From Bacillota bacterium (GTDB lineage Bacteria; Bacillota; Clostridia; Acetivibrionales; DTU013): a DNA stretch of 64,000 nt. The translations under genes and the position numbers were made by a program. Shown here one piece after another: positions 21,647-31,751 of the stretch. The stretch spans positions 472,265-536,264 of the forward strand of contig JAEZMD010000018.1 of assembly GCA_023435745.1 (NCBI GenBank), in the 5' to 3' direction. Positions within the stretch are counted from its first letter, which is position 1. Every line of letters begins with the position of its first letter. Below the pieces are notes generated by a model that was given only the letters and a program-made list of their open reading frames with translations, was not told the origin of the DNA and searched no databases.

Positions 21647-22561
21647 ATGTTATCAAGAGAGGAATATGTCCGACTATCACTGGAGCTGGATCTTTTTTTC
21701 GGGAGAATTTTCAAGGAGCATTCCTTTTTCCTGGAAGCCGGTTTTGTCTGCAAGGATTCGCATTTAGCACAGGAAGCAGAAAATTTCAAAAACCAGTACG
21801 AAATGTTTTTGGCTGAAGTAATTCCGCTTGCAAATGGAGTTGTAAGCCCGGCCTCAATCAGGTCGGGAGAGTTTGTGACTCCATATACGCAAAATGCAGA
21901 GCAGGCATCTCAATTCTATACGGGAATATCGCTCAATTCCGGCTTGACTCAGGCGGAGGCAGGGCTTATCGGAGGCGCAGGCTCAATGTACATGCCTTTA
22001 CTGGAGCAAAGGGTACACATGCTCAATCAGAAGGCAATAATGCTAACGAATGCTTTGATTCAGTTCAAGGCCAGGATCCTGAATGATGTACTTGCCTGCA
22101 AGCTCTTTACGGTCAACTATCCGTTGCTTATCGATCATATCATGCGGGAGGCCAGATTCTTTATCATGATGATTACCAGGATCCAGAACAGACAAAGTAT
22201 CGGTACTGCCGAAGATCTCCAGGAGCAGGAGGTGTTCTGGAACAGGATCATGGCGGAGCATTCGAAGTTCATCCGGGGATTGCTGGATCCCACAGAGAAT
22301 GATCTTATCAATCAGGCAAATGCTTTCGGCAATGAGTTTGATGAATTGACGAAGAAGTCTGCAGAGGCTGCCGAACAGACGGCGCTTCTTGCAGGGGTGA
22401 CCCAGGAAAGCCTGAAGGCCGTGAATGAACTGAGAGGCTTCAAAGCGGCAGGGACAAAGGGTATGCTCGAGTGCAAGGTAAAATCGATCATGGTACCGCT
22501 GCTTGGTGATCATGTGCTTCGAGAAGCCAACCACTTTATGAGAATACTTCAAAGGAATTAA
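21647..22561 (+). CDS. DUF2935 family protein (two helical-bundle repeats)
   Basis: Repeated motif pattern LDLFFGRIFKEHSFFLEAGF / VFWNRIMAEHSKFIRGLLDP, which I associate with DUF2935. Confidence 0.6.
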   Translation: MLSREEYVRLSLELDLFFGRIFKEHSFFLEAGFVCKDSHLAQEAENFKNQYEMFLAEVIPLANGVVSPASIRSGEFVTPYTQNAEQASQFYTGISLNSGLTQAEAGLIGGAGSMYMPLLEQRVHMLNQKAIMLTNALIQFKARILNDVLACKLFTVNYPLLIDHIMREARFFIMMITRIQNRQSIGTAEDLQEQEVFWNRIMAEHSKFIRGLLDPTENDLINQANAFGNEFDELTKKSAEAAEQTALLAGVTQESLKAVNELRGFKAAGTKGMLECKVKSIMVPLLGDHVLREANHFMRILQRN

Positions 22562-22632
22562 GACACCTCAAAGGAGTTAAGACACCTCAAAGGAATTAAG
22601 ACACCTCAAAGGAATTTAGAACTTCAAAAGGG
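22544..22632. repeat. 19-nt tandem repeat (about 4.5 copies) seeded by the 3' end and stop codon of the DUF2935 gene
   Basis: atacttcaaaggaattaa (CDS end, 22544-22561) | gacacctcaaaggagttaa | gacacctcaaaggaattaa | gacacctcaaaggaatttag | aacttcaaaaggg. It fills the whole convergent gap to feoB. Confidence 0.9.
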
Positions 22633-25747: not shown

Positions 25748-25776
25748 TTGACCTTTCATAAGAAGTGTTGTAGAAT
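25748..25776 (+). promoter_or_regulatory. sigma-A-type promoter of the trkAH leader
   Basis: TTGACC (25748-25753), 17-nt spacer, TAGAAT (25771-25776), about 150 nt upstream of trkA. Confidence 0.6.
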
Positions 25777-25930
25777 TCCATTTATGATGAGGAGTTATAA
25801 ATCAGAATATTGTATCCGGTTCGCAGGCAGTCGGGTCGGTATAAACGCAACGAATGGTGGGGAGCTTATTACAAGGCCTCATCTTTTTTAATGTGTTAGA
25901 TATGCAACATGCCTGCATAGGGGAGAGAAT

Positions 25931-27310
25931 ATGAAAATTATTATCATCGGTGATGGTAAAGTGGGATACAGCCTGGCCGAAAGCCTATCGAAGGAAGACA
26001 ATGATGTGACAATCATTGATAAAAACCCCGAGGCTTTAAAAAAAGCCAGCGAGTATCTGGATGTCATGTGTATCAGAGGAAATGGTGTGAGCACAAAGAT
26101 CCTTATGGAAGCAGGGGTTAGCGAAGCGGATTTGCTCATTGCCGCTACCAGCAGTGACGAAATGAATATGGTATGTTGTCTGACGGGGAAAAAGCTGGGC
26201 GCGGAGCATACAATCGCAAGGATCAGGGATCCGGAGTACGCAAGTGAATTGTCCATTCTCAAGAGGGATCTGGGACTTGATATGGTCATTAATCCTGAGC
26301 AGGCCTGTGCGAACGAAATGTCGCGAGTGCTCAGTTATCCTGCCGCTGTAAATGTGGAGCCTTTTGCAAAGGGACGGGTGGAATTGGTGGAAATCAAGGT
26401 GACTGCCGGTATGTCCATCGTCGGAATGAAAATCAGGGATGTGATGAGCAAGATATCATCTTCTTTCCTGATTGGAGCCATACAACGAGATGATGAGGTC
26501 GTTATCCCCAACGGTGAATTTGAAATCCATGCAAACGACAGGATCTATGTGATCGGAAGACCCTACAATATTTTAGACTTCTGCGGGCACATCGGCATTT
26601 ATGTTCAAAAAATTAAAAATGTTATGATCGTTGGCGGAGGAAGAATCGCCTATTATCTGGCCAAGTACCTTGAAGAAGCAAAGGTTAAGGCAAAGATCAT
26701 AGAGATTGATCGGGACAGATGCGTTGAACTGGCCGAGCTGCTGCCAAACACACTTATCATAAACGGTGACGGTTCTGATGAAACCGTGTTGAATTCAGAA
26801 AATCTGGCAGATATGGATGCATTTGTTTCTTTGACCGGACGCGACGAGGAAAATCTCATGTCTGCCTTATTCGCGAAGCAATCCGGTGTCTATAAGGTTG
26901 TGGCGAAAATAAACAGGATAAATTATACGGGTGTGATCAGCAGCCTGGGTCTTGACAGTGTGATCAGCCCAAAGCAAATTGTAACCAACAGTATTGTCAG
27001 ATTTGTCAGAGGCCTGAGTAATGCAATGGGCAACCCTGTGGAGACATTATACAGGATTATTGGAGACAAAGCGGAAGCAATTGAATTTATTGCCGGCCAG
27101 TCAACAAAGTTTTTAAATACACCGCTAAAAAATCTCAAGCTGGTCAAAGGTGTGCTGGTTGCCGCAATCGTCAGAAAAAATGAGATTATTATTCCTCATG
27201 GAAAGGATATCATCAAGCAGGGGGATAGCGTAATCCTCATTGTAAAAGATAAACAGTTTTCGGATTTTAATGATATTATTGCACCCGGAGGCGTGACGAA
27301 TGAACTTTAG
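25931..27310 (+). CDS. trkA: Trk potassium uptake system, NAD-binding subunit TrkA
   Basis: Two RCK_N/RCK_C repeats (MKIIIIGDGKVGYSLA...; VMIVGGGRIAYYLA...). Confidence 0.92.
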   Translation: MKIIIIGDGKVGYSLAESLSKEDNDVTIIDKNPEALKKASEYLDVMCIRGNGVSTKILMEAGVSEADLLIAATSSDEMNMVCCLTGKKLGAEHTIARIRDPEYASELSILKRDLGLDMVINPEQACANEMSRVLSYPAAVNVEPFAKGRVELVEIKVTAGMSIVGMKIRDVMSKISSSFLIGAIQRDDEVVIPNGEFEIHANDRIYVIGRPYNILDFCGHIGIYVQKIKNVMIVGGGRIAYYLAKYLEEAKVKAKIIEIDRDRCVELAELLPNTLIINGDGSDETVLNSENLADMDAFVSLTGRDEENLMSALFAKQSGVYKVVAKINRINYTGVISSLGLDSVISPKQIVTNSIVRFVRGLSNAMGNPVETLYRIIGDKAEAIEFIAGQSTKFLNTPLKNLKLVKGVLVAAIVRKNEIIIPHGKDIIKQGDSVILIVKDKQFSDFNDIIAPGGVTNEL

Positions 27311-28751
27311 AATGATTTTCAGAAGCCTTGGGAAAGTGCTTTTCATTGAAGCTGCCTGTATGGTGCCTTCTCTGATAGTATCGTTGATTTATCGTCAGAA
27401 CGATACTCGGGCGTTTTTGATTTCCATAATTATGGTGCTTATCGTTGGATTTGTGCTGCAGAGAATCAAACCTGTATCAACGGATATGTATGCCAGAGAC
27501 GGCTTTGCGATCGTATCGCTGGCCTGGATCATGGTGGCTCTCTTCGGGGCGGTGCCTTTTGTCATCAGCGGAGCCATACCTTCTTATGTAGATGCTTTTT
27601 TTGAGTCTGTGTCCGGATTCACAACGACTGGTTCATCAATCCTGCAGGAAGTGGAAAGCCTGCCAAGGGGCATTTTATTTTGGAGAAGCTTTACCCACTG
27701 GGTCGGCGGCATGGGCGTATTGGTCCTGATGCTGGCTGTTTTGCCATCCGTGAAGGCGAGCTCGCTTTCTATCATGCAGGCGGAGAGCCCGGGTCCAAAT
27801 CCGGGAAAGGTCGTTCCAAAACTGGGCCAGTCTGCAAAATACCTATATATCATTTATATTGTGATGACTGTCATTCTGGTGATTTTACTACTGATTGCGA
27901 GAATGCCGCTGTTTGACTCTCTTTGCCATGCATTCGGAACGGCGGGCACAGGTGGATTTTCCATTAAGAGCACCAGCATTGGCGCATACAACAATGTCTA
28001 TATCGAAGTGATTATAACGGTATTCATGTTCTTATTCGGCGTGAATTTTTCTCTGTATTATCAAGTCGTCAGAGGCAATATAAAGTCATTCTTCAAAGAC
28101 GCGGAGCTTCGTTTGTACCTTGGAATCGTATTAGTCTGTATGCTGCTTATCACGCTTGATCTGAACGGAAAAGTTTTCGGGTCTGTCTGGGAATCGCTTA
28201 GACACGCTTCATTCCAGGTGAGCACAATAATAACCACAACAGGCTATGCAACGACGAATTTTGATCTTTGGACGTCCTTCAGCAAATCCATACTGGTTAT
28301 GCTTATGTTTATCGGAGCTTGCGCCGGATCGACGGGCGGCGGCATTAAAAATATCAGGATCGTTATATTGATGAAAACCGTCCGCCGGGAGATTTCGAAA
28401 ATTATTCACCCCAGGTCGGTGTACACCATCAAGGTGGATGGAAAAACGGTAGATAACGATACCTTGTCCGGCGTGATGACATTTTTCTTTGCCTTTATTA
28501 CAATATTTACATTATCGGTTTTGGTGGTCTCTCTGGATGGAAAGGATATGATCACCAACTTTACGGCTGTGGCCACTTCCATTGGAAATGTCGGCCCCGG
28601 GTTGGGTATTGTCGGCCCGATGGGCAATTTTTCAAGTTATTCAGAGCTCAGCAAGTTGGTTTTCTCGTTCTGCATGATCGTTGGCAGGCTGGAAATTTTC
28701 CCTGTGCTTTTGCTTATGACGCCGACATTCTGGAAACGTGTCAACATATGA
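27300..28751 (+). CDS. trkH: Trk/Ktr potassium uptake membrane subunit TrkH
   Basis: Polytopic protein with the repeated pore-loop signature (SGFTTTGSS, GTAGTGGFS, TTTGYAT, CAGSTGGGIK). It overlaps the trkA stop by 11 nt. Confidence 0.92.
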   Translation: MNFRMIFRSLGKVLFIEAACMVPSLIVSLIYRQNDTRAFLISIIMVLIVGFVLQRIKPVSTDMYARDGFAIVSLAWIMVALFGAVPFVISGAIPSYVDAFFESVSGFTTTGSSILQEVESLPRGILFWRSFTHWVGGMGVLVLMLAVLPSVKASSLSIMQAESPGPNPGKVVPKLGQSAKYLYIIYIVMTVILVILLLIARMPLFDSLCHAFGTAGTGGFSIKSTSIGAYNNVYIEVIITVFMFLFGVNFSLYYQVVRGNIKSFFKDAELRLYLGIVLVCMLLITLDLNGKVFGSVWESLRHASFQVSTIITTTGYATTNFDLWTSFSKSILVMLMFIGACAGSTGGGIKNIRIVILMKTVRREISKIIHPRSVYTIKVDGKTVDNDTLSGVMTFFFAFITIFTLSVLVVSLDGKDMITNFTAVATSIGNVGPGLGIVGPMGNFSSYSELSKLVFSFCMIVGRLEIFPVLLLMTPTFWKRVNI

Positions 28752-28764
28752 TCGGATGGAAAAA

Positions 28765-28793
28765 TTGACCTATCCAATTTGCGTGAATATAAT
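28765..28793 (+). promoter_or_regulatory. near-consensus sigma-A promoter with no downstream CDS
   Basis: TTGACC (28765-28770), 17-nt spacer, TATAAT (28788-28793), starting 14 nt after the trkH stop. The next genes are on the opposite strand. Confidence 0.6.
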
Positions 28794-28799
28794 AAGCAA

Positions 28800-28967
28800 G
28801 TTGGGACAAAATAATAAGCATAGGGACACAACAGTTGAACCAAGGCTTTCATATCTAATCAGATATGTATTTGTTGCCTGAGGATCGTAATAAGCTCTGG
28901 TGGCGAATTACGATCCGACGGAAGACTTTGCCTCAGGGAATCATACTGTTGTGTTCCTTGTTTTTTG
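28800..28967 (+). ncRNA. candidate orphan small RNA (~165 nt): promoter, multi-helix structure, U-tract
   Basis: Closing helix gggacacaacagt (28823-35) / actgttgtgttcc (28945-57), 13 bp. Inner hairpin catatct-aatc-agatatg (28850-67). Inner extended hairpin cctgag+gatcgtaat (28877-91) / attacgatc (28907-15) + ctcagg (28932-37). Then ttgttttttg (28958-67). No ORF with an RBS. Confidence 0.4.
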
Positions 28968-29003
28968 TAGACAGTACAGAAGCTTCAAATCAGGCCACAT
29001 ACT

Positions 29004-29567
29004 TCAGATCAGACCATAAACAATAACACCTGCTGTACCTGCAATAAGCATGGTGTAAATTGGGTTTAGTTTAAATTTTCTTAATATGAACAGGCTCACC
29101 GCAAATAAAAGAACTGCTATCCAGTTTAAATCTGACGGTTTTAGCGGCAATGCAGCTTTGTTGAAAAAGGCGGTCATCAGAATGGATAGACCCGCAGAGG
29201 CTATCAATGCAACCACGGCAGGTCGCAGTCCCTTTATGATCCCCTGAACCATGCTCAGTCCTTTGTACTTATAGTAAAGTGTGGCAAGGATCAGCACAAT
29301 GATGCAGGATGGAGTGATACAGCCTACTGTGGCAATAATCGCACCGGGTATTCCTGCAAGCTTGGTACCAACAAAGGTCGATGCGTTGATGGCGATCGGC
29401 CCGGGCGTCATCTGAGATATAGTCAGAACGTCAACAAATTCTGCCGACGTCAGCCAGGGGTGTATTTCAAGGACTTGCTCCTGGATCAGCGGAAGAGCAG
29501 CATATCCGCCGCCGAAGCTGAACAGGCCTACCAGAAAAAAGCTCCAGAAGAGCTGCAGATAGATCAT
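29004..29567 (-). CDS. chromate transporter (CHR) family protein, short-chain half 2
   Basis: MIYLQLFWSFFLVGLFSFGGGYAALPLI... is typical of CHR proteins. The ATG overlaps the upstream stop (ATGA). The track ORF extends to 29636. Confidence 0.85.
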   Translation of the reverse strand: MIYLQLFWSFFLVGLFSFGGGYAALPLIQEQVLEIHPWLTSAEFVDVLTISQMTPGPIAINASTFVGTKLAGIPGAIIATVGCITPSCIIVLILATLYYKYKGLSMVQGIIKGLRPAVVALIASAGLSILMTAFFNKAALPLKPSDLNWIAVLLFAVSLFILRKFKLNPIYTMLIAGTAGVIVYGLI

Positions 29568-30172
29568 TTTTGCTCCTCCTTCTCTCCGGCCGTCCGGCTC
29601 GTACGGTATGTGGTATAAGCGCCAAGTACTCCGCAAACAAGCAGAATAATAACGATGTTGACATTCAGGATTGCGGCAGCTATAAATGCCAGTACCATGA
29701 CCGCAATGGGAAGCACATGTTTGTTTTTAATAATCTTTGAGGCCATATTGATGACCACATCGACGATGACCGCCGCAACACCTGCCTGCATGCCTTTAAG
29801 AAGAGCCTGAATGATTTTGTTGTCTCGAAAGGCGATGTAAAAAAATGAAATGACCGTAATGGTAATCAGTGGTGGCAGCACTGTTCCGAATACAGTGAGA
29901 AAAGCGCCCGGTATTCCTGCCATCCGATATCCGACCAGAATGGAGGTGTTTATCGCGATGGGACCGGGTGCAGACTGACCGATGGCCACCAGATCCAGCA
30001 TTTCATCTTCTTCAATCCACTTAAGCTCACTGACAAAGCGTTTTTGCATCAGCGGTACAATCACGTATCCGCCGCCAAATGTAAAAGCGCTCAGCGTAAA
30101 TGTAGAAAAAAACAAATTCCAATAAAATCGTTTGTCCTTCTTCACAAAATCTTCCCCGTTTCGACGTAACAT
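29564..30172 (-). CDS. chromate transporter (CHR) family protein, short-chain half 1
   Basis: FTLSAFTFGGGYVIVPLM...IGQSAPGPIAINTS. Paired short CHR genes as in B. subtilis ywrAB-type loci. Confidence 0.85.
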   Translation of the reverse strand: MLRRNGEDFVKKDKRFYWNLFFSTFTLSAFTFGGGYVIVPLMQKRFVSELKWIEEDEMLDLVAIGQSAPGPIAINTSILVGYRMAGIPGAFLTVFGTVLPPLITITVISFFYIAFRDNKIIQALLKGMQAGVAAVIVDVVINMASKIIKNKHVLPIAVMVLAFIAAAILNVNIVIILLVCGVLGAYTTYRTSRTAGEKEEQK

Positions 30173-30214
30173 GATGTGACTGCAATTATTTCAGATACCG
30201 GCAGTGCCGGTACC

Positions 30215-30403
30215 TTACTCTACCTTGATAACCGATGTTGGACAGCCATCCTCGGCTTCCCTGGCCAGATCCTCCGATTCTTCGGGGATTTCATCCACAT
30301 AGACCTCTGCAAGTCCGTCATCAGCCATCCTGAACACCTCAGGGCAGGTAGTGGCACACAACTCGCAAGCAATACAGCCGTCTCTGTCAATAGATGCTTT
30401 CAT
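30215..30403 (-). CDS. small single-cluster ferredoxin
   Basis: 62 aa, C-I-A-C-E-L-C...C-P pattern (CIACELCATTCP ... DGCP) and acidic composition. Confidence 0.85.
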   Translation of the reverse strand: MKASIDRDGCIACELCATTCPEVFRMADDGLAEVYVDEIPEESEDLAREAEDGCPTSVIKVE

Positions 30404-31665: not shown

Positions 31666-31751
31666 GGATTCAGGTTTGTAGTGGAGTGGATTCGGGTTTG
31701 TAGTGAAGAGGATTCGGGTTTGTAGTGAAGAGGATTCGGGTTTGGTTTGGG
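31666..31751. repeat. 22-nt tandem repeat, about 3.9 copies, between the DUF4846 gene and xth
   Basis: ggattcaggtttgtagtggagt | ggattcgggtttgtagtgaaga | ggattcgggtttgtagtgaaga | ggattcgggtttggtttggg. The unit resembles the CDS end ttcaggttcgtggagtaa (31634-50). Confidence 0.9.

Follow-up and report, generated by a model that had tools for sequence, protein, structure and literature searches.

A 64,000-nt stretch of Clostridia DNA from an uncultured member of the Bacillota (Acetivibrionales/Hungateiclostridiaceae type), here called the window, carries a structured element between trkH and a split chrA pair that we regard as rather probably a gene for an uncatalogued structured small RNA (sRNA) on the + strand. 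As judged from sequence comparison, this sRNA would have its own promoter, its long closing helix (P1) would double as a terminator that is probably shared with trkAH, and the product would act in trans; alternatively, or in addition, the predicted RNA may form the 3' end of the mRNA of trkAH. The initial annotation had proposed a stand-alone structured sRNA belonging to no known family, a proposal now supported by covariation, pairing selected on the + strand, a -10 box at a fixed distance, the lack of a conserved open reading frame (ORF), and the lack of an Rfam match.

The element fills the gap between two convergent operons, trkAH (+) and ferredoxin-chrA-chrA (-). The genes of the locus and the parts of the element are as follows.

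Before trkA, in this order: feoB (- strand), feoA (- strand), a DtxR-like repressor gene (+ strand)
25931-27310, + strand: trkA, 5' of trkH
27300-28751, + strand: trkH, a K+ transporter gene, with its stop at 28751
28765-28770, + strand: -35 hexamer TTGACC, from the promoter scan
28784-28793, + strand: TGAA and -10 box TGAATATAAT (TATAAT at 28788-28793), conserved
28800-28967, + strand: predicted transcript of ~165 nt, its start inferred ~7 nt past the -10 box and its end within the U-tract
28800-28822, + strand: A/U-rich 5' leader GUUGGGACAAAAUAAUAAGCAUA, conserved (alignment A6, MFE)
28823-28835, + strand: core of the P1 5' strand GGGACACAACAGT, with an interrupted extension to 28839 (MFE, covariation)
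28850-28867, + strand: hairpin H1, CAUAUCU-AAUC-AGAUAUG (28850-28856/28861-28867), 7 bp, in the MFE structure
28882-28916, + strand: hairpin H2 (28882-28891/28907-28916), 10 bp, in the MFE structure
28895-28903, + strand: H2 apical sequence CUCUGGUGG, near-invariant
28920-28925, + strand: purine block GGAAGA (GGMAGA across the family), single-stranded, between H2 and the P1 3' strand
28942-28957, + strand: P1 3' strand ACTGTTGTGTTCC, core 28945-28957 (MFE, covariation)
28958-28967, + strand: U-tract TTGTTTTTTG / UUGUUUUUUG, directly abutting P1
29004-29636, - strand: half-size chrA gene, the first 3' of the element
29564-30172, - strand: second half-size gene of the split chrA pair
Before the chrA pair on the - strand: small ferredoxin gene
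30547, + strand: DUF4846 gene, beyond the chrA/ferredoxin operon

By the listed ORFs, the chromate transporter comprises two half-size genes with a 73-nt overlap, and a 62-aa ferredoxin-like ORF (30215-30403, - strand) precedes the chrA pair; the same trio (29004-30403, - strand, in the window) is found in loci L081 and L082. Repeats occur elsewhere in the window. A tandem array at 22549-22628 (4.3 copies of the 19-nt unit TCAAAGGAATTAAGACACC, 91% match) lies just past the 3' end of feoB (-), and another at 31666-31744 (3.6 copies of the 22-nt unit GGATTCGGGTTTGTAGTGAAGA, 94% match) directly follows the stop codon of the DUF4846 gene. An inverted repeat at 36875-36900/37057-37082 has 26-nt arms that are 88% complementary and 156 nt apart, and contains the palindrome TTGTACAA.

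The initial annotation had placed a near-consensus promoter 14 nt past the trkH stop, facing minus-strand genes. With trkH ending at 28751 and the chrA pair on the - strand, that geometry holds, and TTGACC-17-TATAAT (28765-28793) matches the consensus at 11 of 12 positions, one of two such sites in 6 kb. Across the family, (T/C)GAATAnnnT is present in 14 of the 15 loci, L218 being a weak case, and TAnnnT ends 28 to 31 nt ahead of P1. The hexamers seen are TATAAT, TAGAAT, TAAATT, TATTTT, TAATAT, TAAAAT, TATGAT, TAACAT, and TAGCAT; the fixed positions of the conserved motif are only those critical for a -10 box, and the sequence around the box diverges. A -35 TTGnnn at a distance of 17 to 18 nt accompanies the box in lineages A (TTGCCC, TTGCCT, TTGACC) and C (TTGCTT with a 17-nt spacer, identified by eye); lineages D and E have only a poor one. 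Between trkH and the -10 box, L081 and L002 carry 100 to 250 nt of extra, unrelated DNA, and the distance from the box to the RNA is unchanged, as expected of the RNA's own promoter.

At the 3' end, the base of P1 (GGG/UCC) runs directly into the U-tract, which is the stem and U-tract arrangement of an intrinsic terminator. It is not a compact hairpin: P1 encloses 109 nt here and about 350 to 360 nt in the long forms described below, and a terminator scan that required a loop of 3 to 8 nt did not call it. The U-tract is good in lineages A and D and moderate in B, and lineage C has only an A/U-rich sequence (CCUUAAUAUAUAUUAA); the lineage E contig ends ahead of this position. In lineage C, trimming as far as P1 may generate the 3' end of the RNA. 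In most lineages, the segment that separates trkH from the element contains no terminator-like sequence, suggesting that trkAH transcripts probably end at P1 and the U-tract too.

The predicted fold of the window copy is far more stable than chance. The MFE of 28800-28970 on the + strand is -62 kcal/mol, compared with -37.9 +/- 4.4 for 200 shuffled sequences (z, -5.5; none of the shuffles was as good), and the structure contains P1, H1, and H2. The core of P1 is 13 bp, including one G.U pair (28823-28835/28945-28957), and the 5' leader can pair with the U-rich trailer to extend it (MFE, alignment A6). At the H2 apex, G28894-C28904 and C28895-G28903 close the loop UCUGGUG (28896-28902). The closing helix, the hairpin at 28850-28867, and the U-tract of the initial annotation all read as it had described them. 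It had also drawn a two-segment hairpin, of which the inner segment (28882-28891/28907-28916) is present in the MFE structure and the outer one (28877-28882/28932-28937) is not robust: the latter competes with other MFE pairing, and its counterpart is CCUG/CAGG in L218 and absent in lineage C.

A 22-nt tandem duplication (28789-28828; 1.9 copies, 85% match) spans the start of the transcript. Its first unit, which extends from the -10 box up to the first GGGACA (ATAATAAGCAAGTTGGGACAAA), is repeated as the leader and the start of P1 (ATAATAAGCATAGGGACAC), a two-unit pattern that is recognizable in other lineages too. The duplication might provide a second start site or another pairing partner for the 3' strand of P1.

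To follow the element beyond the window, we collected loci around TrkH relatives in GTDB genomes and by exact-protein look-up of twelve TrkH homologues with 72 to 91% identity; the closest genome matches are metagenome-assembled genomes labeled Bacillota, Clostridiaceae, and Hungateiclostridiaceae. Fourteen distinct copies were recovered from five lineages of uncultured Clostridia.

Lineage A, short form (~165 nt): the window, L001, L081, L082, L219
Lineage B, short form: L218
Lineage C, short form: L223, L224, L225, L228 (L226 and L229 repeat L224)
Lineage D, long form (~390 nt): L002 (also L095, L096), L220, L221, L222
Lineage E, long form: L227

All copies are found between two convergent neighbors, trkH (+) and the split chrA pair (-). 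L083 has neither chrA nor the element; in L003, trkH and chrA converge in the same way across a spacer of only 64 nt that lacks the element. From the core we built a covariance model (CM R1), which was searched over the window and 91 loci (667 kb). In the window it gave a single match (28796-28971; 158.9 bits, E 1e-32), and in the 667 kb of related loci its accepted matches were the known members only, all of them syntenic; matches in L004 and L005 (E 0.04 to 0.7) were rejected as simple terminator hairpins that lack the conserved loops. A profile of the extra long-form module found no further match in 1.8 Mb. When JGI metagenomes were scanned with the pattern AGCTCTGGTGGC-N(8-30)-GGAAGAYTTT, only 2 of 12 matches were real: L096, whose element does not differ from that of L002, and L095, which has the same long form. 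The others were chance occurrences inside coding sequences. A looser pattern gave only chance matches in viral contigs, and none of these resembled the H3-H5 module profile save at noise level (L139, E 0.09). Neither form, short or long, had a blastn match in phage or plasmid collections. The RNA family is real but narrow in range.

Among close relatives, the RNA is 90 to 94% identical, compared with 68 to 85% for the promoter spacer, 53 to 69% for the spacer between the RNA and chrA, and 72 to 93% for the neighboring genes. In L082 and L219, trkH alone is divergent (72 to 74% nucleotide identity to window 27300-28751), and the flanking segments (trkA, the RNA, and chrA) are 83 to 94% identical to the window; this pattern suggests allelic replacement of trkH by recombination. 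A linkage between the RNA and chrA had been hinted at by L082, in which ChrA identity is 94 to 95% versus 74% for TrkH, and was rejected on finding segment by segment that trkH alone diverges.

The initial annotation had called for evidence of conservation outside this strain, and the structure proves to be kept with compensatory changes in five lineages. The core alignment (A6) contains 13 sequences aligned with plain MAFFT and not fitted to the structure; hairpins H3 to H5 of the long forms were excised because MAFFT misaligned the 3' end of these sequences. In A6, 90.0% of helix cells are paired, versus 32 to 46% when partners are slid by 1 to 3 columns; 14 pairs are changed on both sides, versus 1 to 4 in the slid controls; and the covariation score is 0.299, versus 0.04 to 0.06, all of this covariation resting on five lineages. 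Among 500 shuffles, none reached the observed percentage of paired cells, number of double-change cells, or covariation score, and 10 reached the observed number of pairs changed on both sides. In helix 1 (P1), 93.9% of cells are paired, with 4 double-change pairs, e.g., C-G/U-A/U.G at columns 37/175; in helix 3 (H1), the values are 93% and 3. Separate MFE predictions for each lineage agree on the arrangement, in which a long closing helix encloses H1 and an H2 with the same tip loop, and in every lineage the H1 position is occupied by a hairpin of differing sequence and length.

Conservation of sequence is concentrated at particular sites. The stems of H2 are unrelated between lineages (GGAUCGUAAU, GAUUGUAUAUAAAC, GCUUAUAUAUAGAC, GACUC..AUGCAAGC). 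The apex CUCUGGUGG is identical in 13 of the 14 distinct sequences, the exception being L227 (UCCGGGUGG); the loop displayed across the family reads C(U/C)C(U/G)GGUGG. The GGMAGA block 3' of H2 is invariant except at M (A6 columns G126, G127, A129, G130, and A131). P1 varies in length from 13 to 22 bp, and its arms (AAGGRACAYAAC / GUURNGUYCCUU), together with the A/U-rich leader, are conserved beyond pairing needs.

Three additional hairpins, H3 to H5, of 25 to 30 bp each, are inserted between GGAAGA and the P1 3' strand in lineages D and E. RNAalifold predicts 139 pairs for the long form. In the long-form alignment (A10; 5 sequences), 96.8% of cells are paired versus 36 to 43% in slid controls, and 17 pairs are changed on both sides versus 1 to 6, with prediction and scoring of the structure both based on this one alignment. 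The fold z scores are -10.5 (L002) and -12.9 (L227), and the added hairpins are G.U rich. The apical stem of H3 (UUCUGUUAUAG...UUAUAACAGAA; tip CUGUUAUA/UAUAACAG) resembles the P1 arms (ACAUAACAG/CUGUUAUGU) in L002 (2530-2560), L220, L221, L222, and L227, and the covariance model aligned the tip as the P1 3' strand in error. The H3/H4 and H4/H5 junctions share GGGUCGARC. By these likenesses, the long-form module may have been born by internal duplication. In L002 only, a 97-nt near-perfect long hairpin (2243-2339) lies between the trkH stop and the -10 box; it gave only noise-level matches to miRNA precursors in Rfam and may be a separate trkH terminator or an inserted repeat.

The minus strand also folds well (MFE, -51; z, -5.4). 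Such a fold is expected for any region with inverted repeats, so the strand was judged by other means. In helix cells, G.U pairs outnumber A.C by 173 to 4 in the long forms (A10) and by 77 to 17 in the core (A6), indicating that pairing is selected on the + strand only; this asymmetry argues against a double-stranded DNA palindrome. No ORF over the element is conserved across lineages. Starts, frames, and lengths (7 to 126 codons) vary, and we conclude that the element is noncoding. Where the initial annotation had reported no ORF in the unit, the homologues thus share none, and the minus-strand ORF that it had listed (28637-28852) is present and lies mostly antisense inside trkH.

Searches of all 4,227 Rfam 15 families with cmscan gave no match on the element in any lineage, even at E ≤ 10. 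The families covered include 6S, SRP, tmRNA, RNase P, Y RNA, raiA, ROOL, GOLLD, OLE, ydaO/c-di-AMP, and other riboswitches. There were no matches in the whole window at the gathering threshold or in 28600-29100 at E ≤ 10. The L002 long form gave only noise miRNA matches, on a different hairpin, and L227, L220, L223, and L218 gave nothing on the element. The initial annotation had recognized none of SRP RNA, tmRNA, RNase P, and 6S RNA in the unit and had named cmscan as a check; run against Rfam 15, it agrees.

The likeness to the trkA leader that the initial annotation had pointed out is superficial: there is no sequence relation, and the terminator there is a local hairpin. The 5' leader of trkA (25780-25935) follows the promoter TTGACC-17-TAGAAT at 25748-25776. 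Its GAUGAGG (25786-25792) can pair with CCUCAUC (25877-25883) ahead of UUUUUU (25884-25889), and CCUCAUC also forms a local terminator-like hairpin with GGUGGGG. The fold is only modestly better than chance (z, -2.1), no Rfam family matched, including the c-di-AMP riboswitch, and the leader is conserved only in lineage A, with L082 lacking the 5' arm. With its alternative pairings, this leader of the K+ uptake operon resembles an ordinary attenuator and is unrelated to the element.

By the tests run, the element belongs to none of the known classes that come nearest to it in function, namely 3'-UTR sRNAs with a promoter of their own, protein-binding RNAs with paired ends, and the orphan structured RNAs of Bacillota. 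DapZ and MicL of enterobacteria are 3'-UTR sRNAs that have their own promoters and share the terminator of the upstream mRNA. In the same manner, the promoter of the element sits at the end of the upstream gene, 14 nt past the trkH stop, and one terminator probably serves both transcripts. Unlike DapZ and MicL, which base pair in an Hfq-dependent way through a linear seed and have a small hairpin as terminator, the element is enclosed by its terminator helix and has no evident seed or target. With 6S RNA, Y RNA/YrlA, and SRP RNA it shares ends paired in a long closing helix, displayed conserved loops, and modular size variants; on the other hand, no covariance model of these RNAs matches, the junction is multibranched rather than a 6S-type central bubble, and no rsr/Ro or other partner gene adjoins it as for Y RNA/YrlA, the neighbors being trkA, trkH, chrA, chrA, ferredoxin, and DUF4846. 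Bidirectional intrinsic terminators likewise have a G/C-based stem with an A-rich 5' side and a U-tract on the 3' side and stand between convergent operons, but the "loop" here is 110 to 360 nt of covarying structure conserved on one strand.

Two further comparisons draw on published Bacillota systems. The raiA motif/ModT, ROOL, and OLE are large structured noncoding RNAs (ncRNAs) of Bacillota whose function is unknown or recently found (PMC10861870, PMC11706538). The element is similar to them in being multihelical, with conserved unpaired nucleotides, predicted independent transcription, and an occurrence in Clostridia, and the long form nears their size; it differs in showing no similarity to them (cmscan, E ≤ 10) and in its far narrower distribution (14 distinct sequences, one syntenic site). 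An antisense-acting S-box riboswitch lies downstream of the ubiG-mccBA operon of Clostridium acetobutylicum (PMC2566862). There too, a structured RNA with its convergent promoter and its terminator sits past the end of an operon and faces it; unlike that S-box, the element matches no known aptamer and showed no conserved antiterminator pairing in the folds or alignments, and its P1 is very long and stable.

We propose that a sigma-A-type promoter would start the RNA at ~28800 and that P1 with the abutting U-tract would act as an intrinsic terminator, with P1 also clamping the ends against exonucleases. The same terminator would probably end the trkAH mRNA, as in 3'-UTR sRNAs that have their own promoter. 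The RNA would then act in trans, with the exposed H2 loop and GGMAGA binding a partner; the lineage D and E form, which adds three hairpins to the same core, would fit a modular scaffold. We slightly favor a protein or a complex over an mRNA as the partner, since the ends are locked in a long helix as in 6S, Y, and SRP RNAs, there is no free 5' seed, no local complementary target was found, and hairpins are gained in modular fashion. Matches to CCACCAGAG (≤1 mismatch), sought as local mRNA targets of the H2 loop, were at chance level and on the wrong strand. Other candidate functions of the conserved segments were rejected: lineages B and C do not preserve the candidate pseudoknot pairing of UGGU in the H2 loop with ACCA of the P1/H1 junction, the GGCAGA of lineage C conflicts with a CsrA-type GGA sponge, and a hammerhead-like CUGAUGA was found in L218 only.

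Several features weigh against an sRNA. The -35 element is poor in lineages D and E, and the conserved TGAATA could belong, rather than to a promoter, to a longer RNA reading through from trkH. A terminator with a structured "loop" of 110 to 360 nt is atypical, and lineage C lacks a clean U-tract. All members occupy one syntenic site in a narrow clade, so the role may be purely local and in cis.

The plausibility of the other explanations falls from a cis-acting 3'-end structure through an antisense leader and a relic MITE to a small ORF. If the element were only a 3'-end structure in cis (a bidirectional terminator, an insulator, or an mRNA-stabilizing cap), its promoter would be incidental A/T-rich sequence and there would be neither a separate RNA nor a trans function. 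We consider this unlikely. Its position exactly between two convergent operons in every genome, the lack of another terminator past trkH in most lineages, the A-rich leader and U-rich trailer that flank P1 as in bidirectional terminators, and the good fold of the minus strand (z, -5.4) all suit such a role, but a single hairpin would suffice for it, leaving the near-invariant 9-nt apex, the unpaired GGMAGA, and up to five covarying hairpins unneeded. One-strand selection (G.U versus A.C, 173 to 4) and a -10 box that keeps its distance even with extra DNA past trkH also speak against it, as does L003, where trkH and chrA converge across 64 nt without any element. A riboswitch-like leader acting in antisense, in which a stop at P1 and the U-tract would alternate with read-through into an antisense RNA silencing ferredoxin-chrA, appears less probable still. 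The geometry, with a convergent promoter and a structured RNA placed past the end of an operon, has precedent (PMC2566862, PMC9943018), and here the chrA pair and ferredoxin gene do lie directly downstream on the - strand, convergent with the element. The element and the chrA pair co-occur in all members, L083 being without both, and the conserved unpaired nucleotides in a multihelix junction are aptamer-like. However, P1 is very stable at 13 to 22 bp, and no conserved antiterminator pairing or other competitor for its strands was seen in the folds or alignments, which leaves no evident switch; the leader copy of GGGACA gives 6 bp in lineage A only. No known aptamer in Rfam 15 matches, L003 carries chrA without the element, and the gain or loss of a ~230-nt module would be unusual for an aptamer.

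The two remaining explanations are far weaker. A DNA-level feature, i.e., a relic MITE or a palindrome bound by a protein, in which the P1 arms would serve as terminal inverted repeats and the RNA fold would be a by-product, is very improbable. Inverted repeats of 13 to 22 bp do bound a segment of 135 to 370 bp, the size classes differ by an inserted block, and the resemblance of the H3 tip (CUGUUAUA/UAUAACAG) to the P1 arms suggests internal duplication. Yet the element is single copy in the 64 kb, with the P1 arm motif nowhere else, all 14 homologues share one syntenic site, the 667 kb of related loci contain no others, we see no target-site duplication, and phage and plasmid collections gave no match; internal hairpins that covary with G.U on one strand only are not expected of DNA repeats. 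That the element encodes a small protein, e.g., from TTG 28836 or ATG 28865, is hardly credible: mechanical ORFs exist, and in L222 automatic gene calling placed an ORF of 136 aa on the element, but start, frame, and length (7 to 126 codons) differ between lineages, substitutions are compensatory in stems rather than synonymous, and the L222 product lacks both an RBS-like context and a Pfam match.

We read the element as a new family of structured sRNA that most probably uses its own promoter. More tentatively, it is possible that the family forms a modular structured ncRNA class, with a 165-nt core and a ~390-nt five-hairpin form of ~140 bp, that has a dedicated role as a ribonucleoprotein scaffold or sensor wired into an ion-transport locus. 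Bacterial RNAs that are so structured and conserved and yet belong to no family are uncommon, and the orphan RNAs 6S, OLE, raiA/ModT, and ROOL later showed unusual biochemistry. The immediate impact is limited by a narrow range in uncultured anaerobes. The anatomy is testable, with a near-invariant 7-nt loop, an unpaired purine block, and short and long forms that amount to a natural deletion experiment; modularity of this kind is unusual. The design would also be unusual in that the helix closing the whole RNA is the terminator itself, probably for the trkAH mRNA too. If the assignment is correct, an ncRNA that shares the trkAH terminator and fires toward the chromate transporter genes could couple both convergent operons.
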